Assembly (NCBI GenBank): GCA_012521615.1
Contig: JAAYMA010000058.1
Span: forward strand, 7,809 to 71,808
Source: Clostridiaceae bacterium
GTDB taxonomy: Bacteria; Bacillota; Clostridia; DSM-8532
Reading direction: 5' to 3'
DNA: 64,000 bases
Shown here one piece after another: positions 29,206 to 60,129 of the stretch (position 1 is its first letter; each line of letters begins with the position of its first letter). A program made the position numbers and the translations under genes. The notes beneath the pieces were generated by a model. The model made no database searches. It was not told the origin of the DNA and was given only the letters and a program-made list of their open reading frames with translations.

Positions 29206-29320
29206 ATATTTCTCCCTTTCTTAGGAATAATAAAATCTTACTTGCAATATCTTTTTTAATTTATTCTTCCAGTCCTAAATTTTCAAATTTTAGTTTCCAT
29301 ACTATGACTTCTAACTTCCA

Positions 29321-30588: not shown

Positions 30589-30589
30589 G

Positions 30590-32567: not shown

Positions 32568-32607
32568 AATAAATTCCTCCTTGCTATGTATGTAACTTCA
32601 AACATTC

Positions 32608-33915
32608 TTACTTATTCGCCATCCTTTTCAAAGCGTCTTTCCCTATTCTGATAGATTGTGTGATACGTCTCTTGGCAGGGCAAGTATATGAGCATGAACC
32701 GCATTCCATACAATCCAAAATGTGATTTTGCCCTGCCTCCTCATATAGCTTTGCCCTTACAAGCCGGTCAAGTTCGAATGGCAGAAGGTTCATTGGACAA
32801 GCTTTTACACAGCGTCCACACCTGATACACGAAGTCTCCTCGGGTAACCCGGCATGAACATCTGAAAAAGCCAATAACGCGTTAGTGTTTTTTATCACGG
32901 GAAGATCCATGGAATAAAATGCCACACCCATCATAGGTCCGCCCATAATAATTTTTCCGGGTTCGGTTGTGAATCCTCCGCAAAAATTAAATACTTCCTC
33001 AATAGGTGTACCAATCAATACTTCCACATTAGCCGGATTTTTTACTGAAGATCCGTCAACTGTGACGCGTTTTTTGATCAGTGGCATACCTGTTTTGAGA
33101 TAAGAGGCCAGAAATGATACTGATGTGACATTCATTACAATGCATCCTACATTCGCAGGCAGTTTGCCGGAAGGAACTTCTCTGCCGGTAAGTGTCCGAA
33201 TCAAAATCTTTTCTGCTCCCTGCGGGTATATTGTTTTAACACTTTGAACTGTGATTTCAGAGAAATCTTTTGAAGCTTTCTCAAGTTTCCTGATAGCCTC
33301 GGGTTTATTATCTTCAATCCCTATGATGGCCCTGGAAATTCCGGTCCATTTCAGAACAGCTCTGATGCCATCCACGATATTCTCCGTATTTTCTATACAT
33401 TCCCTGTAGTCGGAAGTAATATAAGGCTCACACTCGGCAGCATTTATAATTAAAGTATCTACATTTGTGTCTCCGGGCGGATTAAGTTTAACGTGAGCCG
33501 GGAACCCTGCTCCACCCAATCCTGTCAGACCTGATTCCCGTACAGCCTTTAAAAAATCATCCCTATTACTGATAACAGGAGGTTTTATATCTTCCTTAAC
33601 TTCCTGAAGACCATCAGGTTTGATTTCAATACAGGTTATCGGCCGGTTAAATGAAATTATTCTTGTATCTACCGAAGTCACTGTTCCTGATACGCTGGAG
33701 TGAACCGGAGCCGAAACATAACTCTCTGTATCCCCTATAACCTGTCCTACCTTAACGGTATCACCTTTTTTGACAAGTGGCTTACATGGCGCGCCTATAT
33801 GCTGAGCCATGGGAATAACCACTTTTTCAGGGATACCCATTTTTATGGTTTCACACTCTAAAGTATTTTTAGACTGTGGCGGGTGCACACCACCCCTGAA
33901 AGAACGGATTTTCAT
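32608..33915 (-). CDS. rnfC: Rnf complex subunit C (NADH-binding, 2x[4Fe-4S])
   Basis: 435 aa: MKIRSFRGGVHPP, GLGGAGFP, and two CxxCxxCxxxCP motifs. Confidence 0.9.
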   Translation of the reverse strand: MKIRSFRGGVHPPQSKNTLECETIKMGIPEKVVIPMAQHIGAPCKPLVKKGDTVKVGQVIGDTESYVSAPVHSSVSGTVTSVDTRIISFNRPITCIEIKPDGLQEVKEDIKPPVISNRDDFLKAVRESGLTGLGGAGFPAHVKLNPPGDTNVDTLIINAAECEPYITSDYRECIENTENIVDGIRAVLKWTGISRAIIGIEDNKPEAIRKLEKASKDFSEITVQSVKTIYPQGAEKILIRTLTGREVPSGKLPANVGCIVMNVTSVSFLASYLKTGMPLIKKRVTVDGSSVKNPANVEVLIGTPIEEVFNFCGGFTTEPGKIIMGGPMMGVAFYSMDLPVIKNTNALLAFSDVHAGLPEETSCIRCGRCVKACPMNLLPFELDRLVRAKLYEEAGQNHILDCMECGSCSYTCPAKRRITQSIRIGKDALKRMANK

Positions 33916-34277
33916 AATCTACCAACCCCATATATATCTTTAATCCAAAGAACTACCATCCTAATATTCTGATTCTGTAAAATGTCAATTTAATGTAACA
34001 TAGAAATGTCTTGAAAAGCACAAGCATATTCTGTAGTTGAGTTTATTTTTTTATCTTTATAATTGGCATATTTTCCTTGTAATGACCTGAAATTAATTGT
34101 TTTCAGCAGTAACTATGTATTAAGTATACATTTCTCATAAATTTATATCAACTTTGATGATAATGCTGAGTTAAATTTCTATGTTTCCCCTAAAATTTCT
34201 TATAATAGTTCAATAAAACTGCAAATTGTTTTTTATAGTCAGAACCATTATAATGTTAAGTGTTGTAAGCAAAAAAA

Positions 34278-34295
34278 TCGTTAATTTTTTAACTT
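34278..34295. promoter_or_regulatory. Rex-like operator candidate (TCGTTAATTTTTTAACTT)
   Basis: Perfect GTTAA-N4-TTAAC core at 34280-34293. Compare the clostridial Rex consensus TTGTTAANNNNTTAACAA. Confidence 0.3.
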
Positions 34296-34499
34296 GCAGT
34301 TTGAGTATTTTTTTTTTGGGTAAAATATATAATCTGACGTATTTTGTCGTATTTAAACAGATTGTAGATTAGATCAAATAATTATGTTTTATTGAAATAT
34401 AAAAGCATCATATATAACATCATAATATTTTATATAATATTTTTTTTAAATAATATTATTTATTGTTTTATTAATTTTCCTTGCCCTAATTTACAGGAT

Positions 34500-34517
34500 A
34501 AGTTAATATATTAACAA
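34500..34517. promoter_or_regulatory. Rex-like operator candidate (AAGTTAATATATTAACAA)
   Basis: Perfect 14-nt palindrome GTTAATATATTAAC. The right half TTAACAA matches the Rex consensus fully. Lies about 92 nt upstream of the oadA-like ATG. Confidence 0.35.
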
Positions 34518-34608
34518 GCGCCTTGAAATGATTAAAATAATTGTAAATATGAAATGTTTTTCACCATATAAGCCGACAATTAAAATAAGCGCAGAAAGGA
34601 GAGCGTAT

Positions 34609-35988
34609 ATGAAAAAAGTAAACATCACAGAAACCGTATTAAGAGACGCCAACCAATCCCTTATTGCCACAAGGCTCCCCTTCGAAGATTTCGAAGAAAT
34701 ACTGGAGACAATGGATAATGCGGGATATTATTCTCTTGAATGCTGGGGCGGAGCAACTTTTGATTCATGTCTGAGATATTTATCAGAGGATCCATGGGAA
34801 AGGCTCAGAAAAATAAGAGAAAAAGTCAAAAATACTAAATTGCAGATGCTTTTGCGTGGACAAAATCTTTTGGGTTACAAACATTACCCCGACGATGTAG
34901 TCAGAAAATTTGTCCAGCATTCTGTCAAGAATGGTATTGATATTATTAGAATATTCGATGCTCTCAATGACTTCAGAAACATAGAAGTAGCAGTCGAAGA
35001 AACCTTAAAATGCGGTGCGCATGCCCAGGGTGCCATCTGCTATACAATAAGCCCTATTCACAACCTTGAAAAATACGTGGAAATGGGTAAAACTTTAGAG
35101 AGCATGGGAGTAAACTCCATCTGTATCAAAGATATGGCAGGAATATTAGCTCCTCAGGAAGCTTATGATTTGATCAAAGCTCTGAAGGAAACTGTAAAAG
35201 TTCCTGTATTTCTGCATACCCACTCAACCACAGGTCTGGGGCCAATAACTTATATTAAAGCTGTAGAAGCAGGTTGTGACGGAATAGACACCTCTATTTC
35301 TGTTTTCTCTGGCGGCACAGCTCAGCCTGCAACCGAAACTCTTAATTATGCAATTAAAGAAATGGGTTATCAAACAGACCTTAAAGAGGACGTTTTAAAG
35401 AAAATCAATGATTTCTTCAGACCAATTAAAGAAAAGTTCATACAATCAGGTGGTCTTGACGCATATGTTTTGGGAACTGAAACAGATGCTTTAAATTATC
35501 AGATTCCCGGTGGTATGCTTTCAAATCTTATAGCTCAGCTTAAACAGCAGAATGCTATGGATAAGCTGGAAGAAGTGCTTCTGGAAACACCCAAGGTAAG
35601 AAAAGACCTGGGTTATCCACCCCTTGTAACACCCATGAGTCAAATGGTAGGTGTTCAGGCTACAATAAATGTTTTGACAGGCGAAAGATATAAAAATGTT
35701 ACCAAGGAAGTAAAAGCCTATCTTAAAGGTGAATATGGCAGAGCACCCGGCGAAATAGATTCAGAACTGATTAAGAAAGTTTTAGGCGATGAAGAACCTA
35801 TTACAGGAAGATTTGCCGACACCTTGGAGCCAATTTTTGAAAAAACCAAAGAAGAACTTGGTGACATGGCGAAATCTGATGAGGATGTTCTCTCATATAT
35901 AGCATTCCCGCAAATAGCTAAAAAATTCTTCAAAGAAAGAGAAGAAAAGAAAGCGAAAATTGTAAGCTATACCATTTCAAGAGTGTAA
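34609..35988 (+). CDS. oadA: Oxaloacetate decarboxylase alpha-type carboxyltransferase (5S/PycB-like), no fused biotin domain
   Basis: MKKVNITETVLRDANQS... is HMGL-like TIM-barrel carboxyltransferase sequence. The ATG at 34609 has an AAAGGAGAG SD. ORF track starts at 34528. Confidence 0.85.
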   Translation: MKKVNITETVLRDANQSLIATRLPFEDFEEILETMDNAGYYSLECWGGATFDSCLRYLSEDPWERLRKIREKVKNTKLQMLLRGQNLLGYKHYPDDVVRKFVQHSVKNGIDIIRIFDALNDFRNIEVAVEETLKCGAHAQGAICYTISPIHNLEKYVEMGKTLESMGVNSICIKDMAGILAPQEAYDLIKALKETVKVPVFLHTHSTTGLGPITYIKAVEAGCDGIDTSISVFSGGTAQPATETLNYAIKEMGYQTDLKEDVLKKINDFFRPIKEKFIQSGGLDAYVLGTETDALNYQIPGGMLSNLIAQLKQQNAMDKLEEVLLETPKVRKDLGYPPLVTPMSQMVGVQATINVLTGERYKNVTKEVKAYLKGEYGRAPGEIDSELIKKVLGDEEPITGRFADTLEPIFEKTKEELGDMAKSDEDVLSYIAFPQIAKKFFKEREEKKAKIVSYTISRV

Positions 35989-36001
35989 AGGATGGTGTTC
36001 T

Positions 36002-36319
36002 ATGTCATTTTATGAAAGTGTCATACTATCAGTATTTGGATTAGGGGTTGTATTTGTTGTTTTGATTTCATTAAGTGCAATTATAGGTATACAGTCCAGG
36101 ATACTTAATGCTTTTACCCGCAAAAAAGAAACTGACAATGAGGATACAGCACCTGTCCAAAGCGCTGATGAAAATAATGCACCTGATATTTCAGCAGGTG
36201 AATTGAGATTATATGATGTGGATGAAAAAACTGCAGCCATGATAATGGCAATAGTAAGTGATGAAACAAAAATACCTTTGTCAGAACTGAGATTTAAAAG
36301 CATAAAAGCATTAGATTAA
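36002..36319 (+). CDS. Decarboxylase gamma-chain (OadG family) membrane anchor
   Basis: 105 aa. The N-terminal TM (VILSVFGLGVVFVVLISL) is typical of OadG. Its position between the alpha and biotin-carrier genes fits. Confidence 0.7.
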   Translation: MSFYESVILSVFGLGVVFVVLISLSAIIGIQSRILNAFTRKKETDNEDTAPVQSADENNAPDISAGELRLYDVDEKTAAMIMAIVSDETKIPLSELRFKSIKALD

Positions 36320-36345
36320 AAATCTGTTGCATGGAGGATGTTAGT

Positions 36346-36762
36346 ATGAAATACATTGTGACTATTAATGGAAAAAACTATGAAGTTGAAGTTGAAAGAG
36401 GTAAAGCAACAATTATAAGTACATCACAAGCTCCTGCTGTTCAAGCACAGCCTGTTACCACACCTGCACCCGCAGCACCAGCATCTGCTCCTCAAAATGC
36501 ACCTGCTGCTCCGGCTCCTCAAAACACACCTTCACCTGGCAATGTTTCAGGCGAAGCCATTAAAGCACCCATGCCCGGAACAATTTTAAGAATAAGAGTA
36601 TCAAAAGGCACAGCCGTAAAGAAGGGTGATATTCTCTTAGTTCTTGAAGCCATGAAAATGGAAAATGAAATCATGGCACCTCGTGATGGTGTAGTCTCTG
36701 GTGTTTTTGTTTCTGAAGGAGCTACAGTTTCTACAGGAGATACACTTATAGCATTAGATTAG
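36346..36762 (+). CDS. Biotin carboxyl carrier protein (free-standing)
   Basis: Ala/Pro-rich linker then a biotinyl domain with the EAMKMENEI motif. The ATG at 36346 follows GGAGG. ORF track gives 36331..36762. Confidence 0.85.
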   Translation: MKYIVTINGKNYEVEVERGKATIISTSQAPAVQAQPVTTPAPAAPASAPQNAPAAPAPQNTPSPGNVSGEAIKAPMPGTILRIRVSKGTAVKKGDILLVLEAMKMENEIMAPRDGVVSGVFVSEGATVSTGDTLIALD

Positions 36763-36777
36763 GGGGTATAAATACTC

Positions 36778-37926
36778 ATGACGTACTCATTAACCGATAT
36801 AATTGTTAAGATATGGGAAATGTCCGGTTTTGCCACTATAACATGGCAGCAACTGGTAATGATAATTATATCCTGCGTTTTATTCTATCTTGCCATTGTC
36901 AAGGAATTCGAACCACTTCTGCTTTTGCCAATTGCTTTTGGAATGCTTCTGGCTAACTTCCCTATGACAGATTTACTAGCAGGTCCATCAGGCGATCAGG
37001 CCGGCGGTCTTCTTTACTATCTCTATCAGGGAATAGAGTTGGGTATATATCCTCCTCTCATATTCCTGGGTGTCGGTGCTATGACCGACTTCGGTCCCCT
37101 TATTGCAAGACCTTCAAGTTTATTTTTAGGGGCTGCAGCTCAGATGGGTATATATGCAGCTTTTATGCTCGCGATTGCCTTAGGTTTCAATCCCGGCGAG
37201 GCAGCTGCTATAGGTATTATTGGTGGCGCAGACGGTCCTACTGCTATTTGGCTTACTTCCAAACTGGCCCAAGACTTATTGCCTGCTATAGCAATAGCAG
37301 CATATTCCTATATGGCACTTATCCCCATGATACAGCCACCCATTATGAGACTTTTAACTACAAAGAAGGAAAGAGAAATAAAAATGGAACAGTTAAGGGA
37401 AGTTTCCAAACTTGAGAAGATTGCATTCCCTATAATTGTTACCATTCTTTGCATTCTTCTTCTTCCCTCAGTTGCACCTCTGATTGGTATGCTCATGCTG
37501 GGTAATCTCTTCAGAGAAGCCGGCGTTGTTGACAGACTTTCTAAGACTGCACAGAATGAACTGATTAATATTGTCACCATATTCATAGGACTTACAGTTG
37601 GATCCAAGGCCGTTGGTGAAAACTTTTTGAAGCCTGAAACCTTAATGATTATAGGTCTTGGTCTGCTTGCCTTTATGTTCAGTACTGTAGGTGGAGTTCT
37701 TCTTGGCAAGCTCATGTGCTGGCTGTCAGGAGGTAAGATTAATCCTCTTATCGGTTCTGCAGGTGTTTCTGCAGTTCCTATGGCCGCAAGGGTTTCCCAG
37801 GTTGAAGGTCAAAAAGCCAATCCCGGTAACTTCCTTCTCATGCATGCAATGGGCCCCAATGTGGCTGGTGTTATTGGCTCTGCCGTTGCAGCAGGTATAT
37901 TCTACGCCCTGTTCGGCGGCAATTAA
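36778..37926 (+). CDS. oadB: Na+-translocating decarboxylase beta subunit
   Basis: 382 aa polytopic OadB/GcdB/MmdB-like protein ([20 protein letters not shown]). Confidence 0.85.
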
Positions 37927-44420: not shown

Positions 44421-45296
44421 TCATGTATTTTTTGCAGTTTCTCTCTGCTTTGCAATTTCAAACATTATAAGAGCAGCTGCAACTCCTGCATTCAGAGAAG
44501 AGATTTTGCCTTTCATAGGAATACGGACTATAAAATCACATTCATTCTTAATAAGCCTTGACATGCCTTCCCCCTCACTGCCGATAACCAGTGCGCAGGG
44601 CCCTTTAAGATCTGTTTCATAATAGATGCTCTGTCCATCCATGTCCGAACCTATTACCCAGACTCCTCTTTTTTTAAGGTCACGCAGTGTCTGGGCAAGG
44701 TTTGATACCCTCGCCACCATTACATATTCAAGAGCACCGGTTGCAACCTTTGCAACCGTAGCATTCAATGTTGCAGATCGGCGTTTGGGGATAATAATAC
44801 CATGTACACCTGCACATTCAGCACTTCTTATAATCGAACCCAAATTATTGGTATCAGTTATTTCGTCCAATACCAGCAAAAATGGCGGTTCACCCAGTTC
44901 TTCTGCTTTTGACAGAATATCTTCAACTTCCACGTATTCCTTTGCAGCAACTTCCAGAATTACACCCTGATGTACCCGGGTCTGGGACATGGTATCAAGC
45001 TTGAAGCGTTCAAGATACTGGATCGGGACATTTTTTTCCCGTGCCATGGCAATGATTCTTAAAAGGAACTGATCTTTGGTTCCTTTTTCCACAAATAGCT
45101 TATTTAACGGGCGTCCGGACCTTATTGCCTCAAAAACGGCATTCCTGCCCTCTATTCTGTCTTCCCTCTCGGTTTCAATATCAGAACTTATATGTCTGAA
45201 CTTATGCAGTTTAGCCTCGTTTTTAGGCGATACACTACTTTTTGCAGCTTTGTTTTTAGTGACTCTGTTTATTGGTGTCCTGTTCTTCTTTTTCAT
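44421..45296 (-). CDS. rlmB: 23S rRNA (guanosine-2'-O)-methyltransferase, TrmH/SpoU family (RlmB/YacO-like)
   Basis: SpoU methylase motifs (LVLDEITDTNNLGSIIRSAE, LVIGSEGEGM, IPMKGKISSLNAGVAA). Lys-rich N-terminal extension. Follows mrnC, as in Bacillus. Confidence 0.85.
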   Translation of the reverse strand: MKKKNRTPINRVTKNKAAKSSVSPKNEAKLHKFRHISSDIETEREDRIEGRNAVFEAIRSGRPLNKLFVEKGTKDQFLLRIIAMAREKNVPIQYLERFKLDTMSQTRVHQGVILEVAAKEYVEVEDILSKAEELGEPPFLLVLDEITDTNNLGSIIRSAECAGVHGIIIPKRRSATLNATVAKVATGALEYVMVARVSNLAQTLRDLKKRGVWVIGSDMDGQSIYYETDLKGPCALVIGSEGEGMSRLIKNECDFIVRIPMKGKISSLNAGVAAALIMFEIAKQRETAKNT

Positions 45297-45711
45297 TCTT
45301 TATCGACCCTTCTTCCTGAGTTTCGATTATTAAAGCAGCCTGTTCCATAAGATACTTAAGCCGGTCATGCTGATTGGTCAGATATAAAAAACCCAGTACG
45401 GTTTCAAAAGCCGTTGCATATTTATAATCCTGAATCTCTGCATGTTTTGGTACAGTTGTTGATTTTGTGTTCCTGCCCCTTCTAAAATAATAGGCTTCCT
45501 CCTCTGTAAAGAGCTTATGCAGGTTTTTTGAAATAAAGGCCTGAGAAGAAGCCTTCACATAGTCTGTTGCATATATATGAAGATCATGCGAGGTCCCTTT
45601 TCTGTTCTTTATCAGTCTTTCCCTGATAAAAAGATCAAATACCGCATCGCCCATATAGGCAAGAACAGATGGCTGCATAAATCTGACTTCCTGGTTATTT
45701 TTAAATGGCAA
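45256..45711 (-). CDS. mrnC: Mini-ribonuclease 3
   Basis: The LAYMGDAVFDLFIRERL motif fits the Mini-III family. TTG start at 45711 with GGAGTGA 7 nt upstream. Confidence 0.85.
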   Translation of the reverse strand: MPFKNNQEVRFMQPSVLAYMGDAVFDLFIRERLIKNRKGTSHDLHIYATDYVKASSQAFISKNLHKLFTEEEAYYFRRGRNTKSTTVPKHAEIQDYKYATAFETVLGFLYLTNQHDRLKYLMEQAALIIETQEEGSIKNEKEEQDTNKQSH

Positions 45712-50362: not shown

Positions 50363-51163
50363 TCAATCAAGTTGGCTGTGGGCTTCTTTAACTGTGCCTT
50401 CTACGTCAATGTCAGCTTGATCTGCATTTTCGCTATTTATCAGATACAGCAGATACTCAATATTTCCTTCCGGACCCTTAATGGGAGAATACGAAAGCCC
50501 CAGCACAGAAAAACCGAGGTTGACGGCTTCCTTAATAACATTATTGATTACTTCTTCATGCACCGATGGATCCCTTACAACGCCCTTTTTCCCGACCTTT
50601 TCCCTTCCTGCTTCAAACTGGGGTTTTATAAGGCAGACTACCCTGCCCTCAGGCTTCAAAAGGCTTTTTAAAGGCGGAAGAATCAATTTGAGTGAGATAA
50701 ATGAGACATCCACCGCACCGAAATCCAGTTCTTCATTAATATCACCTTTGGTAACATATCGAAAATTAGTTCTCTCCATACAAATTACCCTGGGATCATT
50801 CCTCAGTTCCCAGGCAAGCTGACCGTAGCCGACATCAACTGCATAGACTTTTTTTGCACCGTTTTGAAGCATAACATCAGTAAAACCGCCGGTAGATGCC
50901 CCTACATCAACACAGATACAATCTTTAAGCGAAATATTAAATGCCTCTACAGCCTTCTCCAGTTTTAACCCACCGCGACTGACATATCTGTTGGGATTTC
51001 CTTTAACTTCAATATGGGAATTCACATCATGCTGTGAACCGGGTTTGTCATGACGCTCACCGTCTATAAAAACAAGACCCGCCATAATGGCTCTTTTCGC
51101 TTTTTCGCGACTGTCGAAAAAGCCTTTTGAAACAAGCAGTACATCAAGCCTTTCTTTTGACAT
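50363..51163 (-). CDS. tlyA: TlyA family rRNA (cytidine-2'-O)-methyltransferase
   Basis: S4 domain (RLDVLLVSKGFFDSREKAKRAI) plus an FtsJ-like methyltransferase domain (DVGASTGGFTD). Its start overlaps the dxs stop. Confidence 0.9.
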   Translation of the reverse strand: MSKERLDVLLVSKGFFDSREKAKRAIMAGLVFIDGERHDKPGSQHDVNSHIEVKGNPNRYVSRGGLKLEKAVEAFNISLKDCICVDVGASTGGFTDVMLQNGAKKVYAVDVGYGQLAWELRNDPRVICMERTNFRYVTKGDINEELDFGAVDVSFISLKLILPPLKSLLKPEGRVVCLIKPQFEAGREKVGKKGVVRDPSVHEEVINNVIKEAVNLGFSVLGLSYSPIKGPEGNIEYLLYLINSENADQADIDVEGTVKEAHSQLD

Positions 51164-53067
51164 TACAATCCTCCGTTTTCCGGAAACTCCATCTTACTCA
51201 GGATACTTTCCTTTATGCTCCGGGCATCAAGCCCGTATTTCCTGAGAATGAGGTTTCTTTCTCCATGTTCTATGCCTATATCAGGCAAACCTAAATTCAG
51301 AGTCCGGACTTTGCCGGAAAGTCCATTATATAAAAGCTCTGTTACAAAAGAGCCAAAACCGCCATTTTTAATGACATCCTGAATTATAACAACCCTGCCC
51401 GTCTTTTTTGCTGAATTAAGTATGGTAACATCATCCACAGGTCTTAAGAAACGGGGATTTATAACCTCACAGGAAATCCCCTCTTTCTCCATAAGTTCAG
51501 CTACTTCGAGCGCTTGTGAAACCATACACCCGACACCAATAAGAGTAAGATCATTGCCTTCTTTCACCACAACAGCCTTACCGTATTCCAGAGGTATATC
51601 GGATCGATCAAACTCCTTGCCCGAACCTCTGGGATACCTTACTGCAATGGGACCCTTATGTTCATTTACTGCATAGTCCAGCATTGCCTTAAGCTCATTG
51701 GGGGAAGCAGGGGACAAAATTGTCATATAGGGAATAGTGTATAAATATGAAACATCATAAATTCCCTGATGTGTCTCTCCGTCATCACCCACAATGCCAC
51801 ATCTGTCTACTGCAAAAACTACATCCAGCTTTTGAAGGGCAACATCGTGCAGAATTTGGTCATATGCTCTTTGCAAAAAAGTAGAATAAATTGCTACTAC
51901 AGGTTTTACTCCGCCCATGGCAAGCCCTGCAGCCAGTGTCACGGCATGCTGCTCGGCTATACCAACATCATAAAATCTTTCAGGGAACAATTCCTTAAAA
52001 GACCTGAGACCCGTACCATCAGGCATTGCCGCTGTTATTGCAGCTATGTCCTTGTTATCCCTTGCAAGTTCACACAACCTATTGCCAAAAACTTGTGAAT
52101 AATTTTCACTGCCAGAATTTTTTGTCAGACCGGTCTCTATCTCAAAAGGCGCAACTCCATGAAAGAAATCGGGATTTTTCTCGGCATGTTCATAACCTTT
52201 GCCTTTAATAGTCACTACATGAACCAAAACAGGTCCCTTCATAGTTTTAACATGTTCGAACACATTCACCATCTCACGGATATTATGGCCGTCAATTGGT
52301 CCAAAATAGCGGAATCCCAGATCTTCGAAAAACATTGAAGGCATCAGCATGCTTTTCATTGAAGTTTTTATTTTATGGACAAATTTTCTGAAAGTTTTCC
52401 CGCAGGGTAATAAATCCAAAAATTCCTGAACTGATTCACGGGTTTTATAATAGAGGGGACGAACCCGCAATCTGCTCAGATATCTGGACAGTCCTCCCAC
52501 ATTGGGGGCAATTGACATGCCATTGTCGTTGAGGATTATAAGCAGATTGGTTTTTGAAATACCGGCATCATTAAGGGCTTCGAGAGCCATACCACCTGTT
52601 AAGGCACCATCTCCGATCACGGCAGAAACAGTATATGACTCCCCTTTCAAATCCCTTGCCCGTGCCATACCCAAAGCAGCAGAAATTGAGGTGCTGCTGT
52701 GTCCTGTATTGAATACGTCATAGGGACTTTCCTCTGTCTTGGGAAATCCCGACAGGCCGTTCATCTGACGCAAGGTAGAGAATTTATCCCTGCGTCCTGT
52801 CAAAATTTTATGGACATAGGTCTGATGCCCCACATCCCATACAATCTTATCAAGCGGAGCATTCAGGACTCTGTGAAGGGCAATTGTCAGCTCCACAACA
52901 CCAAGGTTTGAAGCTATATGTCCTCCGGTCTTTGAGACTATGTCAATTAAAAACTCCCGTATTTCCTGTGCCAATATGTTAAGTTCATCAAAACTTAATT
53001 TTTTTAATTCATCCGGACTATCAATCCCAGTAAGAAATCTATATGATTTATTTAAATTTCCACTCAA
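51163..53067 (-). CDS. dxs: 1-deoxy-D-xylulose-5-phosphate synthase
   Basis: GGHIASNLGVVELT, GHSSTSISAALG and TPP-binding GDGALTGGMA motifs. A TTG at 53067 has AGAGGTG 5 nt upstream and removes the overlap with the upstream gene. ORF track starts at 53175. Confidence 0.95.
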   Translation of the reverse strand: MSGNLNKSYRFLTGIDSPDELKKLSFDELNILAQEIREFLIDIVSKTGGHIASNLGVVELTIALHRVLNAPLDKIVWDVGHQTYVHKILTGRRDKFSTLRQMNGLSGFPKTEESPYDVFNTGHSSTSISAALGMARARDLKGESYTVSAVIGDGALTGGMALEALNDAGISKTNLLIILNDNGMSIAPNVGGLSRYLSRLRVRPLYYKTRESVQEFLDLLPCGKTFRKFVHKIKTSMKSMLMPSMFFEDLGFRYFGPIDGHNIREMVNVFEHVKTMKGPVLVHVVTIKGKGYEHAEKNPDFFHGVAPFEIETGLTKNSGSENYSQVFGNRLCELARDNKDIAAITAAMPDGTGLRSFKELFPERFYDVGIAEQHAVTLAAGLAMGGVKPVVAIYSTFLQRAYDQILHDVALQKLDVVFAVDRCGIVGDDGETHQGIYDVSYLYTIPYMTILSPASPNELKAMLDYAVNEHKGPIAVRYPRGSGKEFDRSDIPLEYGKAVVVKEGNDLTLIGVGCMVSQALEVAELMEKEGISCEVINPRFLRPVDDVTILNSAKKTGRVVIIQDVIKNGGFGSFVTELLYNGLSGKVRTLNLGLPDIGIEHGERNLILRKYGLDARSIKESILSKMEFPENGGL

Positions 53068-53095
53068 AAGAACACCTCTTATCAAGATTTCACTT

Positions 53096-53740
53096 TCATT
53101 TTCGCCTTGACGGCTGTTTCCCTCTATCAAACATTGCAAGGAATTTTCCGGCTTTATAGACAATATAATTTGCATTATTAATCCCGATATTTTTTGTAAA
53201 TCCTTTGCCGCCTACAGTCAGTGCAGCAATCAGGGCACCAACCAGTACTTCAATCAGTGATACCTGATGATTTCCGGCAAAAACACTGTACACAATGGCA
53301 GTTCCCGCAGCACCACTTACCACACCGCAGATATCCCCTATTACGTCATTACAGAAACTTGACACCTTTGACGCATTCCTAAGCAGCATGATTGACTGTT
53401 TTGCCCCTTTTATTTTCTTCGAGGCCATACAATGAAAAGGAGTCTCATCGGCCGCCGTCACTGCAATACCTATGATATCAAATAATATACCTAATAATAT
53501 TATTGCTAATACCACCAATGTTGACATCTGGTATGAAATTACCTTAAAAATACTTGAAGACAAAAATAAAATTGCAATTGACAGGGTAAAAGATACGACT
53601 GTAATAAACAAACCCCAATAAATATGTTTTTTATGGAAACCCGAATTTTTTTTAACCGGAATCTTGGATTTAGATGCCTGCCTATTCTTTTTGGCAGCAG
53701 ACTTCAAAAGCCTTTTGTCCGATTTATCCTCTTTGTCCAA
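53096..53740 (-). CDS. oapA: OLE-associated membrane protein A candidate
   Basis: 214 aa with a basic N-terminal tail then about 4 hydrophobic segments. Lies between the OLE-like RNA and dxs, the position described for oapA. TTG start at 53740. Confidence 0.65.
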   Translation of the reverse strand: MDKEDKSDKRLLKSAAKKNRQASKSKIPVKKNSGFHKKHIYWGLFITVVSFTLSIAILFLSSSIFKVISYQMSTLVVLAIILLGILFDIIGIAVTAADETPFHCMASKKIKGAKQSIMLLRNASKVSSFCNDVIGDICGVVSGAAGTAIVYSVFAGNHQVSLIEVLVGALIAALTVGGKGFTKNIGINNANYIVYKAGKFLAMFDRGKQPSRRK

Positions 53741-53799
53741 TATAACTCTGCTCTCCTGTTTTATAATTAAATTATACTTTTATGGTTATTATATATATC

Positions 53800-54416
53800 A
53801 GCAGGATGGCAACAATCCGAGTAAATTTTGCGCCTTAGGTCAGGCAGGATTTCCCCGATAGGTACCAAAACGTCGCCATTTTGGCGGTTTCCCATTAAAC
53901 CTAAAGTTGAGAGGTTGCCCTCATCAAAGCCTGATCGCCACTCAGTACACACTACAATCCCCGGATTGTCAAGAAAACTTACAGCCTAGGGGTTTTCCCC
54001 GTAAGCCTTACCGAGCTTCTAGCCTCTTTTGCACGATTGGTTTCAAACAGCAATATTGTCTATGTATTGGCCAGCACATAAACAACCGATCCGTTATCCT
54101 CCAACCGCACTCAAGGCAGGCTACGCTGTCCACAGCATCAAAAGTGATACCACATGACAGGTTTACTCCCTCACCGTAGTCAAGATTTGTGTCGCAAATG
54201 CGAGGCAATCTGTCTCCCACGAATGAGGGTCTCCGCGGTAGAGGGGACAGGTCCTGCATGCCATTACAGGTTGCCCCTAAACCTTAACTCCCAGCACCAG
54301 CCCATCACTGGGCGTAACAAGCCGGCACAAGGAACTTCATCGATGTGCCCTTTAACGGATTTTTAGGCCCGTCTTCGAAGCCGGCAGTGCTGACTAGGAT
54401 ACTGCGCCATCCTGCT
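53800..54416 (-). ncRNA. ole: OLE (ornate, large, extremophilic) RNA
   Basis: 617 nt closed by a perfect 11-bp helix (53800-53810 with 54406-54416). About 50% G+C in the stretch I counted, against AT-rich flanks. Many perfect internal hairpins, including a GNRA (GUGA) loop that exists only in minus sense. No credible ORF. The context ispA, this element, a 4-TM protein, dxs matches the described OLE locus. Confidence 0.8.
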
Positions 54417-54433
54417 ATAAATTATGGAAAGAT

Positions 54434-54462
54434 ATTATACAATAAAAAGTTTTATTTAGCAA
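54434..54462 (-). promoter_or_regulatory. Sigma-A promoter candidate immediately upstream of the OLE RNA
   Basis: Minus sense: TTGCTA, a 17-nt spacer ending in TG, then TATAAT. This places the predicted start about 10 nt before the terminal helix. The -35 box overlaps the last codons of the DUF212 gene. Confidence 0.55.
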
Positions 54463-54892
54463 ATACAATGCCCACCAAAATTCCCAGGGCAGCGCCTAAA
54501 AAAACCTGAATGGGAGTATGTCCCAACAGCACCTTGAGTTCTTTTTCAACTTTGACATCTGTAGAATATATCAGTTTATTGATTACCTCGGCTTGTTTGC
54601 CTGCTGCACGCCTTACACCGGCTGCATCGGCCATTACAATAAAGGCAAAAATAACTGAAAGAGCGAATATCCCGGAATCAAAACCATATTGTATCCCCAA
54701 GACAGTTGCAAGACATACAGAGATAGCAGAATGACTGCTTGGCATCCCTCCCGAGGATACAAACTTTCTGAAATCAAATTTACCATGCTTGATAAAATGG
54801 CTGACAAATTTTATAGACTGAGCCAGAAACCATGCAAATAATGGCAGCACAATTACTTTATTATCCAGTATTTCTTTCATGTAGCCACCCAC
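54452..54892 (-). CDS. Divergent PAP2 / DUF212 family membrane protein (YuiD-like)
   Basis: SSGGMPSSHSA, GVRRAAGKQAEVINKL and LLGHTPIQV motifs. The probable ATG at 54880 lies within the track ORF. Confidence 0.75.
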   Translation of the reverse strand: MGGYMKEILDNKVIVLPLFAWFLAQSIKFVSHFIKHGKFDFRKFVSSGGMPSSHSAISVCLATVLGIQYGFDSGIFALSVIFAFIVMADAAGVRRAAGKQAEVINKLIYSTDVKVEKELKVLLGHTPIQVFLGAALGILVGIVFAK

Positions 54893-54933: not shown

Positions 54934-55830
54934 TTATCTGTCTCTGTTCTCTATATAATACGCAGTTTCAACAAGAAAATCCGAATTTTTGACTTCTTCC
55001 AATGCTTCAACTGCCCTCTCCACCGTCCTCTTCAGGAATTCCTTTGCTTCATTTAAGCCCATAACAGTTACAAAAGTCGACTTCTTATTCTTTTCATCAC
55101 TTCCGGTGGGTTTACCTACAACTGCACTGTTCCCCTCATAATCAAGAAGGTCGTCTTTAATTTGAAATGCTAAGCCAATATTTTCAGCATAGCGTACAAG
55201 GCGTTCCTTTATAATATCTGGTGCATCATATAACTCGGCAGGAAATAAAATGCTGGCTTTTATCAGCTCCCCTGTCTTTTTTCTGTGTATGTTAAGAAGA
55301 TGGTCTAAACTAATAGCCCTTCCTTCCGATGATATATCCAATACCTGACCGCCTATCATTCCTGAAGCACCGGCTGCTCCGGCAATAACAGAGGCAGCTT
55401 TGGATTTATAATAACAGCCTTCTTTGTCTCTGGACACTTCTTCCAGCAGTATCTCGAAAGCCCTGTTCAATAAAGCATCTCCGGCCAAAACGGCAATTGC
55501 CTCACCGAATACTTTATGGTTCGTAGGTTTTCCGCGCCTGAAATCGTCATTATCCATACAGGGAAGATCATCATGTATCAGGGAATAGTTATGAATCATT
55601 TCAAGCGCACATGCAAAGGGTAAAACAGCATCATAATCTCCTTCAAGCAAATCACAAACTGCAAGCGAAAGTACCGGTCTGATCCTTTTTCCTCCCGCCA
55701 TTAAACTATAGTTCATAGCCTCAAAAATTACTTTTTCAGGACAATCATCATAAGCAGTATAGTGCTTGAGCCAGTTTTCGATTTTTTCAGTATAATTTTG
55801 ATATTGCTTTTTGTAATCCATTATATTCAA
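54934..55830 (-). CDS. ispA: Farnesyl/geranylgeranyl diphosphate synthase (polyprenyl synthetase)
   Basis: First DDxxD-type motif LIHDDLPCMDNDDFRRG and second motif FQIKDDLLD. Confidence 0.9.
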   Translation of the reverse strand: MNIMDYKKQYQNYTEKIENWLKHYTAYDDCPEKVIFEAMNYSLMAGGKRIRPVLSLAVCDLLEGDYDAVLPFACALEMIHNYSLIHDDLPCMDNDDFRRGKPTNHKVFGEAIAVLAGDALLNRAFEILLEEVSRDKEGCYYKSKAASVIAGAAGASGMIGGQVLDISSEGRAISLDHLLNIHRKKTGELIKASILFPAELYDAPDIIKERLVRYAENIGLAFQIKDDLLDYEGNSAVVGKPTGSDEKNKKSTFVTVMGLNEAKEFLKRTVERAVEALEEVKNSDFLVETAYYIENRDR

Positions 55831-56069
55831 CCCTCTGGAGTAAAATCCCTTTCATCTATCTGGTTATTCTCTTCCAAAATAATAGTTATTCGTTTTTCTA
55901 TATCATCAAGCTTTTTATTGCAATACCGGACAAGTCCCACACCTTTTTCAAACATCTTCATGGAATCTTCCAGTGTGAGCTCCCCGCTTTCAAGTAAGTT
56001 GACTATGCTTTCAAGTTCGGCAATTGCCTGCTCATACGGCATATCGGTCTTGATTTCATTCTTACCCAT
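55827..56069 (-). CDS. xseB: Exodeoxyribonuclease VII small subunit
   Basis: 80 aa: YEQAIAELESIVNLLESGELTLEDSMKMFEKG. Confidence 0.9.
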   Translation of the reverse strand: MGKNEIKTDMPYEQAIAELESIVNLLESGELTLEDSMKMFEKGVGLVRYCNKKLDDIEKRITIILEENNQIDERDFTPEG

Positions 56070-56072
56070 ATT

Positions 56073-57290
56073 TTACACCTCCGTCTGTTCGGTTAAGGTT
56101 TTATCATAAACAGCCTGGAATTTCCCATCACAAACCGTTATTATGAGTTCCTCACCAGGCCTCATCTGTTTAACCGAACGGATCATTTCCCCACTTTTGT
56201 TCTGGGTTACTGAATATCCTCTGCTGAGCACCGTCAGTGGACTTAAGGCATCCAGTTTTCCTGCCAGCACCTTTAAATCTGATTTTAGATTTTCCAGTTT
56301 ATATCTGCTTCTGTCAAGAAGGTTCCGTTCAAGCATATCAAGATACTGTCTTCTTTGATTTAACTGTTCTGAAGGCTTTATAAGGCTCCGGGCCTCCGAA
56401 AGTCTTTGCAGTCTGTTTTTCTCATGATTTAACCTGTTTAAAAGTGAGGTATTCAGCCTTTTATAAAAAATACTCAGTTGTTCCTTCATTGCCCTTTTTT
56501 CAGGCATGACCAGCTCTGCTGCTGCAGAAGGTGTGGGAGCACGCAAATCAGCAGCAAAATCCGAAATAGTATAGTCAGTTTCATGACCAACTGCTGAGAT
56601 AACAGGAATTTCTGATGCCACTATAGCTTTTGCCAGTTCTTCATCATTGAATGGCCAGAGATCCTCCAGAGACCCGCCGCCCCTGGCTAAAATTATTACA
56701 TCAACATTTTTTAATTCATTAAATAAATTGATACCTCTGATTATTTCAGAAGGAGCTTCCTTTCCCTGTACGGCTGAACCGTACAAAATTATTCTGCAAT
56801 TTGAATATCGCCTGGTAAGGACATTTATAATATCCCTTATTACTGCTCCTGTTGGTGATGTAATAACGCCTATGGCACAAGGAAGAAGCGGTATAGGCTT
56901 TTTTCGGCTTGCATCAAAGTATCCCTGCTCTTCGAGCCTCTTTTTCAGCTGTTCAAAAGCAAGGTACAAAGCCCCTGTTCCGTCAGGCTGCATTTCTTCT
57001 GCGTAGAGCTGGTAATTGCCACCCTGAGGATATACAGAGACATAACCTCGTATAATAACGCGCATTCCTTCTTCAGGACGAAACTTAAGACGAATATTAT
57101 GTGACCTGAACATCACGCATCTGATTATTGATTTTTCATCCTTCAGAGAAAAATACATATGCCCTGATGAATGGGCTTTAAAATTGGAGATTTCGCCAGC
57201 CACCCATACATGAGAAAGCAGCATGTCACTGTCGACAAGCTGCTTAATATATCCAGTTAACTCTGAAACAGTAAGATACCTGTTCATCAT
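56073..57290 (-). CDS. xseA: Exodeoxyribonuclease VII large subunit
   Basis: 405 aa with an OB-fold N-terminus (VSELTGYIKQLV...VWVAGEISNFK..SGHMYFSLKD), ARGGGS and GHETD motifs. Confidence 0.95.
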   Translation of the reverse strand: MMNRYLTVSELTGYIKQLVDSDMLLSHVWVAGEISNFKAHSSGHMYFSLKDEKSIIRCVMFRSHNIRLKFRPEEGMRVIIRGYVSVYPQGGNYQLYAEEMQPDGTGALYLAFEQLKKRLEEQGYFDASRKKPIPLLPCAIGVITSPTGAVIRDIINVLTRRYSNCRIILYGSAVQGKEAPSEIIRGINLFNELKNVDVIILARGGGSLEDLWPFNDEELAKAIVASEIPVISAVGHETDYTISDFAADLRAPTPSAAAELVMPEKRAMKEQLSIFYKRLNTSLLNRLNHEKNRLQRLSEARSLIKPSEQLNQRRQYLDMLERNLLDRSRYKLENLKSDLKVLAGKLDALSPLTVLSRGYSVTQNKSGEMIRSVKQMRPGEELIITVCDGKFQAVYDKTLTEQTEV

Positions 57291-57304: not shown

Positions 57305-57718
57305 TTATAACTTCCCTTCCAGCTCACCCAGGACTTTTCCCAATACTCCATTAATAAAGGATCTTGATTGATCTCCGCAATATTTCTTGGCCAGTTCAAC
57401 AGCTTCATTGATTGAAACATTGGGAGGTATGTCGAATCTGTATTTCATCTCGTAAGATGAAAGGCGTGTAATTGCAAGGTCAACTTTGGGCATCCTGCCT
57501 ATTGTCCATCCTTTTAAATGCCTTGATATGAGCTGATCAAGTTCCTGCTGCCTTTCTATAACACCGTTTACCACGTCCAGAAAATATTCTCTGTCAGCAT
57601 CTTCAGAAATATCGTGCTCTTCCAAAAAACGTTCTATCTGCTCCTTAATATCATCCCTTTGTATTTGTATTTGATAGAGTAATTTCATAGCCTTCTCGCG
57701 GGTCTGTTTTCTTCCCAA
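57305..57718 (-). CDS. nusB: Transcription antitermination factor NusB
   Basis: [15 protein letters not shown]... A TTG at 57718 has GGAGGG 6 nt upstream. ORF track starts at 57745. Confidence 0.9.
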
Positions 57719-57791
57719 AATTGTCCCTCCGAATTTAATTGACAATTACTTATAAGTATTTAATAAGTTCTTATCAAGAATTATAACTATA

Positions 57792-58532
57792 CTACACTTT
57801 CTGTGCAACATAAAATATTCTTTCTTCCTGAGCACCTGGCGGATTGAAACTAAGATCTCCATAAACTTCTGCAAGTTTGAGCCCGGCATGTTCAAGGGCC
57901 TGCTTTATCTCATCAGTGGTATATGCTGTTTCCTGATGGGTTTCATCAAATCGCTCGTATAACCCTTCATGGTTTCTGACAAAAAAGGCAAGATCAAAGG
58001 TTACTTTTCTTTTTTTACTGTCGTATGTATTGGTCCAGACCCATGCAATATCCTCGCTCAAATCATAAAATGTTTCATTGCCGAGAATTTTGGAGATCTT
58101 GTAAGGACTGTTCAAATCAAATATAAAAAGCCCGCCCGGGTTAAGATACCTGCTCACCAGCTCAAATACCTGCTTTACTTCATCAATCGAGTCCATATAG
58201 TTCAAGGAGTCCAGAAGGCATATAACTGCGTCAACTGTACCATGAAGTTCAAAATTCCTCATATCCTGATTTATGAATAATATATCCTGATTGCTTTCCA
58301 AAGCTTTTTCATAGGCTTTGGAAAGCATATCAACCGATATATCAAGCCCAATCATTTGAAAGCCGCGTTTAGACAATTCAATAGTCATATTCCCGGTACC
58401 GCAGGCCAATTCCAGTATAAGCTCAGGTTTTTGATTAAATTTAAGAAAGGCTGATTGCAAATAATCAGCCCACTTTTTATAGGGAATATCCTGTACAAGT
58501 TGGTCGTAAACATCTGCAAATCGTCTGTACAT
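57792..58532 (-). CDS. Class I SAM-dependent methyltransferase
   Basis: SAM-binding motif ILELACGTGNMT. 246 aa. Substrate unknown. Confidence 0.75.
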   Translation of the reverse strand: MYRRFADVYDQLVQDIPYKKWADYLQSAFLKFNQKPELILELACGTGNMTIELSKRGFQMIGLDISVDMLSKAYEKALESNQDILFINQDMRNFELHGTVDAVICLLDSLNYMDSIDEVKQVFELVSRYLNPGGLFIFDLNSPYKISKILGNETFYDLSEDIAWVWTNTYDSKKRKVTFDLAFFVRNHEGLYERFDETHQETAYTTDEIKQALEHAGLKLAEVYGDLSFNPPGAQEERIFYVAQKV

Positions 58533-58547
58533 TGTCTCACCTGTGAA

Positions 58548-58706
58548 TTAAACCGTTTTGGATTTTTTCTTTCTTGACAAAATACCACCAATCCGGCCTG
58601 TTTCTTTGGCACTCAAACTTTTCCATCCGCCTTTTTGAATTTTTTCAAGAAGGCCCAGCTCCTTTGCAATCTCAAGTTTAAGCTGTTCATCTTTTTTCTT
58701 CTGCAT
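58548..58706 (-). CDS. Alpha/beta-type small acid-soluble spore protein-like
   Basis: 52 aa. LKLEIAKELGL (compare the GPR cleavage region EIASEF) and SAKETGRIGG (compare TSRANGSVGG). The ATG at 58706 has GGGGTGA upstream. Confidence 0.6.
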   Translation of the reverse strand: MQKKKDEQLKLEIAKELGLLEKIQKGGWKSLSAKETGRIGGILSRKKKSKTV

Positions 58707-58756
58707 ATAAATCACCCCACGGAATATTATTGCCATTGCTATCCATGGGTATTCAG

Positions 58757-60022
58757 CTATTTATCTAACTTTTTCCGCACTTCTTCGACAGCAACTATCA
58801 ATTGTGCATCCTTATCATGGGGAATATCTTCTATTAACATGTTCTTATATTCTTTATCCAGATCTATTTCAATATCCGGCATTACACCTTCATCATGGAT
58901 GCATTTTCCTGAAGGTGTAAAGTAGCGTGAAATAGTATATTTGAAACCTGCACCATTGTCAAACCCGACATCAATTGCCTGAACAAGGCCTTTGCCGAAA
59001 GATTTTTTACCAACAAGAGTCCCCTTTCCATAGTCCTGAACGCAAGCTGCCAGAATTTCGGATGCACTGGCACTGTATTCGTTTATAATAATGCTCAGCG
59101 GCATATTCAGTTCTCTTTCATCAGAGTATTCCTCGTTCCTTATCTTAAACCTGTCCTCTGTATAAACTATTAACCCCTTTGGTACAATCCTGTCTGCAAT
59201 TCTGACAACCTGGCCGTAATCACCGCCGGGATTGTCCCGAAGGTCTATTACAAGCCCTTTCATGCCTTGAAGAATTAATTTGTTGAGTTCCTTTTCAAAA
59301 TCTTCTGCTATATCGTGATCAAACTGTTTTATCTGGATATAACCTATTTCATCATCCAGCATTTCGCTTGAAATATATGGTATGTTTATTGCTCTTCTCT
59401 CCAGCTCCAGATCTATATACTCCCGTGTCTCTGGTCTGTAAATAGTAATTTTGACTTTTGTTCCTTCTTCACCTCTAATTCTTTCCACAATCAAATCTGC
59501 ATCTGTAATTGTAGTTACATCCTCATCATTTACCTTAACAATCTTGTCATTCTTTTGAATACCGGCCTCTTTTGCAGGAGAATCCGGGAATATATTAGCA
59601 ACATTCAGAAGATAATTTTCATCCATGTGAACCGTAACACCAATACCAACATATCTTCCTGTAGAATCTTCCATGAACTTCTTCATTTCCTCAGGAGTAT
59701 AATAGACAGTGTACGGATCCTTTGCACCGGCTGATAACCCCTTTATCGCCAAACTGAAGGCTTCATCCAAATCAACTTCCTTATAATATCTCGTACTCAA
59801 AATATTTTTCACTCTATTGAAAGCAGTTAAATTGGACTGGCTTATTTCATCCTTATCAAAAAATAAGGCAGTCTGAGGTTTGAACCATTGAGCCAATGGT
59901 TTTGTCACAAACACATCCCAGGATACCATTCTGATTACTGAAAACAGGTATCCTGAAAAGAATGCAATAACCAGACAAATACATATCACAGATATATTTA
60001 TTATTTTCCTACTGTTTTTCAT
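58757..60022 (-). CDS. Carboxy-terminal processing protease (peptidase S41)
   Basis: N-terminal TM, a PDZ domain (GIQKNDKIVKVNDEDV) and the S41 catalytic region (NEYSASASEILA, GKKSFGKGLVQ). The ATG at 60022 lies within the ORF that starts at TTG 60031. Confidence 0.85.
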   Translation of the reverse strand: MKNSRKIINISVICICLVIAFFSGYLFSVIRMVSWDVFVTKPLAQWFKPQTALFFDKDEISQSNLTAFNRVKNILSTRYYKEVDLDEAFSLAIKGLSAGAKDPYTVYYTPEEMKKFMEDSTGRYVGIGVTVHMDENYLLNVANIFPDSPAKEAGIQKNDKIVKVNDEDVTTITDADLIVERIRGEEGTKVKITIYRPETREYIDLELERRAINIPYISSEMLDDEIGYIQIKQFDHDIAEDFEKELNKLILQGMKGLVIDLRDNPGGDYGQVVRIADRIVPKGLIVYTEDRFKIRNEEYSDERELNMPLSIIINEYSASASEILAACVQDYGKGTLVGKKSFGKGLVQAIDVGFDNGAGFKYTISRYFTPSGKCIHDEGVMPDIEIDLDKEYKNMLIEDIPHDKDAQLIVAVEEVRKKLDK

Positions 60023-60129
60023 AACGGACAACCCTTCTACAAGCGTACTTATTTCATTTTACATCCTATGCTTAATTTTTTCAAACAATGTTAGAAGCAT
60101 AATAAAAAATCGGGCATAAGAACTTCAGA

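Follow-up and report, generated by a model that had tools for sequence, protein, structure and literature searches.

A full-length OLE RNA gene and its oapA neighbour in an uncultured Thermoclostridium-related anaerobe

The locus and the OLE gene

The DNA analysed here, a 64-kb stretch of a contig labelled Clostridiaceae bacterium (64,000 nt; hereafter the window), carries on its minus strand a gene cluster in the order nusB-xseA-xseB-ispA-DUF212-ole-oapA-dxs-tlyA, the proteins other than OapA being named by Pfam matches. The element of interest, ole, fills a 711-nt gap between coding sequences (53741-54451), which an earlier note, made from the letters of this DNA, had described correctly and had read as the gene for an OLE RNA in a cluster ordered nusB, xseA, xseB, ispA, OLE, oapA, dxs, tlyA. 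That order is right but misses one gene: the coding sequence bounding the gap at 54452 encodes a DUF212 protein, not IspA, and ispA is the next gene up. We are highly confident that the gap element is the gene for a full-length OLE (ornate, large, extremophilic) RNA, lying with oapA in the nusB-xseAB-ispA...dxs-tlyA cluster of a Thermoclostridium relative, a spore-forming anaerobe that is uncultured.

The identification is carried by the covariance model of the class. The whole window was scanned with Rfam 15, and the OLE model RF01071 (gathering score 50 bits) gave the sole above-threshold match, at 54426..53790 on the minus strand, with a score of 517.1 bits (E = 9.2e-149); the match spans model positions 1-616 of 616 and is untruncated, so the search of both strands proposed in the earlier note bore out its identification. 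With the RF01071 alignment put into window coordinates, 158 of the 159 model pairs are present in the window copy and 146 of these 158 are canonical, most of the 12 non-canonical consensus pairs being located in stems that are variable among OLE RNAs (helices 8, 10 and 16). Nothing in the evidence gathered counts against the OLE identity. The plainer observations of the earlier note also held: the element is rich in G+C (49.5% at 53790-54426, vs 39.9% for the window and 20% and 14% for the adjoining spacers; 50% at 53801-53860, recounted by script), the gap contains only short, overlapping open reading frames (five, of 53-90 codons), and AGCAGGATGGC (53800-53810) is complementary throughout to 54406-54416, the two forming a perfect helix of 11 bp.

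Because both P7 and P8 are present, the window RNA is of the "full-length" OLE type and not variant 1 or variant 2, the three types being those defined by Fernando & Breaker in 2024 (PMC11332333). It agrees with full-length OLE RNA in length, strand, every consensus helix, the combination of P7 with P8 and an oapA gene directly downstream, as well as in its neighbourhood of isoprenoid, DNA-repair and translation genes and its host, a Bacillota anaerobic spore-former. It differs in an 18-nt extension of the P7 tip, which is common to its closest relatives, in a terminal helix of 12 bp where 7-10 is typical, in a P13 cap that reads GCAA with a bulge 3-4 pairs from the loop, and, at the level of the locus, in the DUF212 gene between ispA and ole. 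With the large RNAs GOLLD, ROOL, raiA and HEARO it shares size, a high degree of structure and covariation support for a noncoding RNA, but it has no sequence or structure match to them, and only OLE reached the Rfam threshold. The OLE class has reportedly been known since the work of Puerta-Fernandez et al. in 2006. Given that, and the roughly 2,800 representatives catalogued in 2024 (Fernando & Breaker, PMC11332333), the window gene is a correct identification of an already-known class and nothing new in kind, on which the earlier note was of the same opinion. The features of the locus are collected in Table 1.

Table 1. Features of the OLE locus, in window coordinates; conserved motifs are given in the sense of the RNA
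Feature	Position	Strand	Basis or remark
OLE RNA gene (Rfam match)	53790..54426	-	RF01071 alignment; length 637 nt
OLE structured core, P1 to P1	53799-54417	-	Length 619 nt
Candidate dedicated promoter: TTGCTA 54462-54457, 17 nt, TATAAT 54439-54434	54434..54462	-	10/12 match
Terminal helix (presumably P1), 5' strand, UAGCAGGAUGGC	54406..54417	-	Perfect 11-nt complement plus U54417-G53799 wobble; pairs with 53799-53810
Terminal helix (presumably P1), 3' strand, GCCAUCCUGCUG	53799..53810	-	Abuts 3' strand of the 3'-domain 11-bp long-range helix
Long-range helix (P3/P3.1), 5' strand	54377..54390	-	Encloses P4-P9; 12 pairs, covariation (helices 2-4)
Long-range helix (P3/P3.1), 3' strand	54005..54019	-	U54014 bulged, 2x2 internal loop
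P4 hairpin, conserved A-rich loop CCUAAAAAU	54354..54373	-	RF01071 match; 99% paired (helix 5)
P4a region, invariant AAAGGGCACAUCGAUGAAG with AUCGAU palindrome	54335..54353	-	Same 19-mer in at least 118 OLE genes of other species
P5 stem, conserved GCCCA loop 54309-54313	54288..54334	-	97-98% paired, 13 pairs with double changes (helices 6-7)
P6 stem, conserved loop AAUGGCAU complementary to P5 loop	54237..54283	-	RF01071 match, covariation (helices 8-9)
P7 with clade-specific distal extension	54168..54229	-	18-nt insertion relative to model; covariation (helix 10)
P8 hairpin	54126..54160	-	RF01071 match, covariation (helix 11)
P9 arm, long, palindromic end loop UGGCCA 54068-54073	54022..54117	-	RF01071 match, covariation (helices 12-16)
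3' domain ("domain 2")	53811..54000	-	Helices 17-24: 86-99.7% paired
3'-domain hairpin GGGGAAAACCCC	53989-54000	-	RF01071 alignment
3'-domain 11-bp long-range helix	53960-53970 with 53811-53821	-	RF01071 alignment
P13, GCAA loop 53915-53918, one bulged base at 53922/53923	53907-53927	-	RF01071 alignment
P14.1, GCGA loop 53873-53876	53864-53885	-	RF01071 alignment
oapA, 214-aa membrane protein, putative partner of OLE RNA	53096..53740	-	Homologue conservation, hallmarks, CNNM-like fold
S41 protease	58757-60031	-	Pfam
Methyltransferase	57792-58532	-	Pfam
NusB	57305-57745	-	Pfam
XseA	56073-57290	-	Pfam
XseB	55827-56069	-	Pfam
Polyprenyl synthase (IspA)	54934-55830	-	Pfam
DUF212 / divergent PAP2 membrane protein	54452-54880	-	PF02681, E 2e-49
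Dxs	51163-53175	-	Pfam
TlyA-type methyltransferase	50363-51163	-	Pfam

Comparative support for the fold

For comparison, one genome per species was scanned for the invariant 19-mer AAAGGGCACATCGATGAAG, which gave at least 120 loci; two of these, from Streptomyces (L034) and candidate division TA06 (L118), were chance matches to the 19-mer and were dropped. Enough flanking sequence was available for 108 loci, of which 103 had an anchor at either end; three OLE-like loci (L073, L074 and L102) did not match the 3' anchor pattern and were not aligned. The resulting alignment, A1, thus holds 104 sequences, the window copy and 103 others. Pairs were counted in A1 after projecting onto it the Rfam consensus pairs together with two added long-range helices: 87.0% of the cells hold standard pairs, a share that drops to 40-46% once the 3' partners are displaced by 1-3 columns, and 153 of the 182 pairs show changes on both sides, the compensatory change that the earlier note had proposed to look for. 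None of 500 column shuffles of A1 reached any of the observed measures. The minimum free energy of the minus strand is -247.8 kcal/mol (z = -7.3 vs dinucleotide shuffles) and that of the plus strand -188.5 kcal/mol (z = -2.6).

The window copy is a faithful member of this set. At least 97% conservation is found at 192 of the 627 window positions, a count in which 19 positions are invariant by construction as the loci were collected by an exact 19-mer, and the window copy agrees at 191 of the 192; it keeps essentially all family-invariant bases, those of the dimer-contact loops included. Among the loci listed, the nearest OLE genes are those of a Clostridiales metagenome-assembled genome (86%) and of Thermoclostridium caenicola (83%). 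Four independent metagenome assemblies of this organism carry the gap with 100% identity and are therefore uninformative on strain-level variation. Complete OLE genes were also seen on two contigs labelled as Proteobacteria, from Succinivibrio sp. (L079) and Pseudomonas sp. ISL-84 (L100), which probably reflect mis-binning or contamination by Bacillota DNA; Fernando & Breaker (PMC11332333) suggest the same for their 24 non-Bacillota matches.

Two long-range helices, one closing the molecule and one enclosing P4-P9, covary strongly in the 104 sequences; the RF01071 consensus structure contains neither. We use the helix names P1 to P15 as deduced from the text of later papers (P1 and P3/P3.1 from PMC12265935). 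The terminal helix, which counts 12 bp in the window with its U54417-G53799 wobble and so falls in the longest class among the listed loci, is presumably the P1 of the published model, which assigns P1, together with both ends of the RNA, to "domain 2" (PMC12265935). Its inner eight pairs covary in A1 (helix 1; GC 50/AU 41, GC 62/AU 32 and UA 54/CG 28/UG 16), and in an alignment-free test, in which the 14 nt that immediately precede the conserved GCAGUAU were paired with the 3' ends of the same and of other species, cognate ends averaged -14.6 kcal/mol vs -9.25 kcal/mol for non-cognate ones (p = 2e-40, n = 104). The helix formed by 54377-54390 and 54005-54019 fits P3/P3.1 by length and position, its 12 pairs agreeing with the 12 bp of PMC12265935, where P3/P3.1 is the stem proposed to cross the membrane; here too the cognate strands pair better than non-cognate ones (-13.0 vs -7.9 kcal/mol, p = 9e-35).

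Between the strands of P3/P3.1 lie the arms through which OLE dimers are held together in other species. Published cryo-electron microscopy structures make the A-rich P4 loop a dimer contact (PMC12265935), the P5 and P6 loops a kissing contact between the two RNAs (PMC12265935, PMC12286853) and the P9 loop a symmetric kissing loop whose sequence covaries among GGCC, GAUC and AGCU (PMC12286853); the P4a region is one of the two mapped OapA sites (PMC12265935, PMC9723947). All of the dimer-contact elements, CCUAAAAAU, GCCCA with AAUGGCAU, and UGGCCA, are present in the window. The OLE dimers of Clostridium acetobutylicum and C. botulinum (PMC12286853, PMC12265935) have the same contact elements, known here from sequence alone, and share the A-rich P4 loop, the complementary P5/P6 loops, the palindromic GGCC loop of P9 and the 12-bp P3/P3.1; the window P7 is longer than theirs.

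This fold decides which of the local hairpins pointed out in the earlier note belong to the RNA. All six of its strings occur where it had placed them, but in the form given there none corresponds to a consensus helix. At 53989-54000 there is a consensus hairpin, which the note had drawn one base out of register. The hairpin at 54192-54203 falls inside the 18-nt insertion relative to the Rfam model, where the P7 extension consists of AGAUU/AAUCU topped by UCGC-AUUU-GCGA; it is probably the real, clade-specific tip of P7, because the four closest relatives among the loci listed (L085, L044, L092 and L116) carry a hairpin there on top of the covarying AGAUU/AAUCU, with two compensatory pairs. 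The others, at 53874-53886, 53955-53968, 54301-54312 and 54324-54349, use bases that the conserved fold pairs otherwise or keeps in a conserved loop or linker. The third of these, CCCA-GUGA-UGGG, had been taken as a GNRA hairpin and as evidence for the strand, an argument that is unsound because CCCA belongs to the conserved GCCCA loop of P5 and the hairpin is not part of the conserved fold. The minus-strand direction that it was meant to support is nevertheless upheld, by the covariance-model match, the asymmetry in folding energy and the G-U pairs in covarying helices.

The genuine GNRA loops of the window OLE are GCAA in P13 and GCGA in P14.1. In Bacillus halodurans the two hairpins carry GUGA and GCGA, respectively, and bind OapB (PMC7936274). 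We considered the GCGA loop as the main OapB site and rejected this, since the same work makes P14.1 a weak secondary site and P13 the main one. As aligned to the model, P13 has a U-C mismatch (53923/53911); a shift of register turns this into a bulged U53923 with four perfect pairs below the GCAA loop.

OapA, transcription and neighbouring genes

By its motifs and domain content, the 214-aa protein encoded directly downstream of ole is OapA, not a true CorB or MpfA. Hydrophobic segments occur at residues of about 42-62, 72-97, 133-156 and 158-181, and the long helices of its AlphaFold model lie at 37-65, 70-96, 123-156 and 162-188 (predicted local distance difference test score 77.6); 14 Lys/Arg residues stand in the first 40 positions and 7 in the last 30. 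The most conserved part of the protein is the block CNDViGD (>90%), inside which lies a DxxxD motif, D132-VIG-D136, with both Asp residues at least 90% conserved. These hallmarks of OapA were published in PMC11332333 and PMC12265935, the DxxxD motif, absent from true CNNM domains, being defined in the former. Like the transporters of the CNNM-MpfA-CorB group, the protein appears to be a four-helix membrane protein; its best Pfam match is CNNM (E 0.0034), and the top Protein Data Bank matches of its model in Foldseek are 7M1T and 7M1U of the archaeal CNNM protein MtCorB (probability 0.98-1.0), 7M1U being the same top match that Fernando & Breaker give (PMC11332333). Unlike those transporters, it is only 214 residues long, has neither a CBS pair nor a CorC domain, and scores 17.5 bits, below the CNNM gathering score of 28.4; it is for these last reasons that we do not regard it as a true CorB or as MpfA, whose occurrence anticorrelates with that of OLE. 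Searching the Protein Data Bank by sequence gave no match, and no NCBIfam model matches the protein. An identical protein has been deposited at NCBI as "Mg2+ and Co2+ transporter CorB" from a metagenome-assembled genome labelled "Clostridiaceae bacterium", a name that we take to be an over-annotation. Among the listed loci with enough flank, an oapA homologue lies directly 3' of ole in 74 of 93. No KOW or L7Ae match, the types of OapB (SBB/KOW) and OapC (YbxF/L7Ae), respectively, was found among the window proteins scanned, a set that covers the 64 kb but not every small open reading frame. The 3' end of oapA overlaps the dxs frame by 44-80 nt, depending on the dxs start (window 53096-53175); Dxs has 658 residues in public gene calls, and its Pfam domain begins at residue 48 of the long open reading frame.

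In B. halodurans, ole is part of a large operon but also has a promoter of its own, and the transcript is processed to about 630 nt (PMC9723947). A candidate for such a promoter exists in the window: its -10 box ends 7 nt short of the Rfam match and some 17 nt short of P1, its -35 box lies just upstream of the DUF212 stop codon (54452-54454), nearly abutting it, and the predicted start would be at about 54427, roughly 10 nt 5' of P1. Taken alone, a sigma-70-like site of this quality is no better than chance for the region. In 65 of 102 listed OLE loci, however, there is a like site whose -10 box ends at a distance of 15-40 nt from the GCAGUAU anchor, on its 5' side, and of the 96 promoter-like sites in a 230-nt scan 70 fall in those two 10-nt bins. 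Two terminator-like matches, at 53874-53886 and 53908-53923, are internal OLE stems and were rejected; none was found between ole and oapA, for which reason transcription is likely to read through into oapA, 58 nt downstream.

Upstream of ole, the listed loci with enough flank have IspA directly 5' in 67 of 88 cases and IspA or DUF212 in 81 of 88; DUF212 itself takes this place in 14 of the 88, all of Clostridia type (e.g., Thermoclostridium, Caloramator and Alkaliphilus), an arrangement on which the OLE papers searched are silent. Farther up, between the S41 protease and methyltransferase genes, a 62-codon open reading frame (58548-58736, minus strand) is called in public assemblies; it has a weak match to small acid-soluble spore proteins and none in NCBIfam.

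The rest of the window agrees with the host assignment. It also encodes an Rnf complex, a Na+-pumping oxaloacetate decarboxylase, GatCAB, a type III glutamine synthetase, UvrC and Mfd, as well as the sporulation proteins SpoIIIAA/AB/AC and YabP, a gene content that points to an anaerobic spore-former and thus to the type of organism in which OLE is expected. The Rnf operon (minus strand) adjoins that of the Na+-translocating oxaloacetate decarboxylase (plus strand) at 28402-37926, which suggests a sodium-based anaerobic energy metabolism. At 45256-45711 (minus strand), a 151-aa protein consists of a Ribonuclease III domain only (Mini-III type) and is encoded beside a SpoU-family RNA methyltransferase, downstream of leuS.

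Alternative explanations and the meaning of the locus

Could the gap code for one or more small proteins, on either strand, with its structure being incidental? The five open reading frames of 53-90 codons do exist and the longest stop-free stretch reaches 105 codons. The median longest stop-free stretch in the 104 OLE genes, however, is 85 codons, as in noncoding DNA of like length and composition; the two largest internal frames have no Pfam match, and public gene callers call nothing in the gap in the four assemblies of the same organism. More importantly, the changes in the helices are compensatory, and the three-base, protein-like periodicity of substitution that the earlier note had raised as counter-evidence is not seen: mismatches against the ten nearest relatives fall by phase as 493/473/535 (p = 0.135), while those of the flanking genes fall as 66/31/197 (oapA), 110/46/238 (DUF212) and 102/68/308 (ispA), all with p < 1e-31. 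We consider a protein-coding origin effectively refuted, its probability being close to nil; by its substitution pattern and fold, the element is noncoding and read from the minus strand.

It is also conceivable that the element serves mainly in cis, as a very large 5' untranslated region or processing signal of the oapA-dxs-tlyA message rather than as an independent RNA. The missing terminator-like site and the start of oapA only 58 nt past P1 would fit such a leader, and so would the probable co-transcription of OLE with oapA, as in Halalkalibacterium halodurans (PMC12265935). In that species, however, OLE is found in very large amounts as an RNA of its own, about 630 nt long, and acts as a particle with OapA, OapB and OapC (PMC9723947, PMC12265935), and in the window the closing helix P1 and the conserved position of the promoter mark out a discrete unit. 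A leader role is further at odds with the loci in which the oapA homologue lies elsewhere, that is, not within 300 nt on the same strand (16 of the 93 listed), or gives no match (3 of 93), and we judge it very improbable. That the window copy is a decaying, non-functional relic is, in our view, exceedingly improbable. Its 12 non-canonical consensus pairs and the non-consensus spacing of the P13 bulge are what one could cite for decay, but most of the mismatches lie in family-variable stems, the match to the model is full length with agreement at all but one of the highly conserved positions, the dimer-contact loops are all intact, oapA is intact and conserved, and the sequence is the same in all four independent assemblies.

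If the window gene is a working OLE gene, as we hold, its function may be sketched by analogy with better-studied members. Judging from H. halodurans and two Clostridium RNAs, the RNA would be made both from its own promoter and by operon read-through, and then be trimmed to about 620 nt. It would dimerise via the A-rich loops of P4, the kissing loops of P5 and P6 and the palindromic loop of P9, while OapA, a four-helix relative of CNNM/CorB, would bind it at palindromes near P2 and P4a and hold it at the membrane; OapB, OapC and bS21 may be recruited in turn. CNNM/MpfA transporters have cytosolic regulatory domains that OapA lacks; in the mechanism that we prefer, a proposal from the literature, OLE would stand in for these and would thereby regulate and scaffold ion handling at the membrane in response to stress. 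Other species have been found to need OLE in order to withstand cold, short-chain alcohols, high Mg2+ and poor carbon sources (PMC12265935). We regard the replacement of OapA's missing domains, with regulation of ion handling as its outcome, as roughly evenly balanced between true and false.

Some points tell against the mechanistic part of our interpretation, though not against the identity of the RNA. In the window P13 the bulge lies 3-4 pairs from the tetraloop; the distance is 3 pairs in the Rfam consensus and 2 nt in B. halodurans, and because of this difference in spacing the binding of OapB to the window P13 is only assumed. The Foldseek matches of OapA to CorB are statistically weak (E 0.014-0.25, template modelling scores 0.39-0.49), and both the transmembrane and the transporter-regulator models of OLE are proposals for the class as a whole.

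The DUF212 gene raises a further, more speculative thought. In some Clostridia, the DUF212 or divergent-PAP2 phosphatase-like protein might work together with the OLE particle as a partner peculiar to that lineage, for example as a polyprenyl-diphosphate phosphatase. Literature searches found no link between DUF212/YuiD and OLE, and the protein has no matching NCBIfam model. The gene is a neighbour of ole and at most a putative member of the OLE system, and to the partnership itself we give little credence. If it were true, it would connect isoprenoid-lipid metabolism with a membrane-embedded RNA and provide a concrete biochemical handle on why ole is always found among isoprenoid genes.

OLE is one of the largest bacterial noncoding RNAs for which we know of no biochemical function, and recent work proposes that it is a dimeric, membrane-spanning RNA. 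Any ordinary search with Rfam would bring up the copy described here, which is a clean, full-length OLE gene of an uncultured anaerobe resembling Thermoclostridium. Its practical value lies in the details around it: P1 and P3/P3.1 covary although they are absent from the Rfam consensus, the position of a dedicated promoter is conserved, and the neighbour named "CorB" is OapA.

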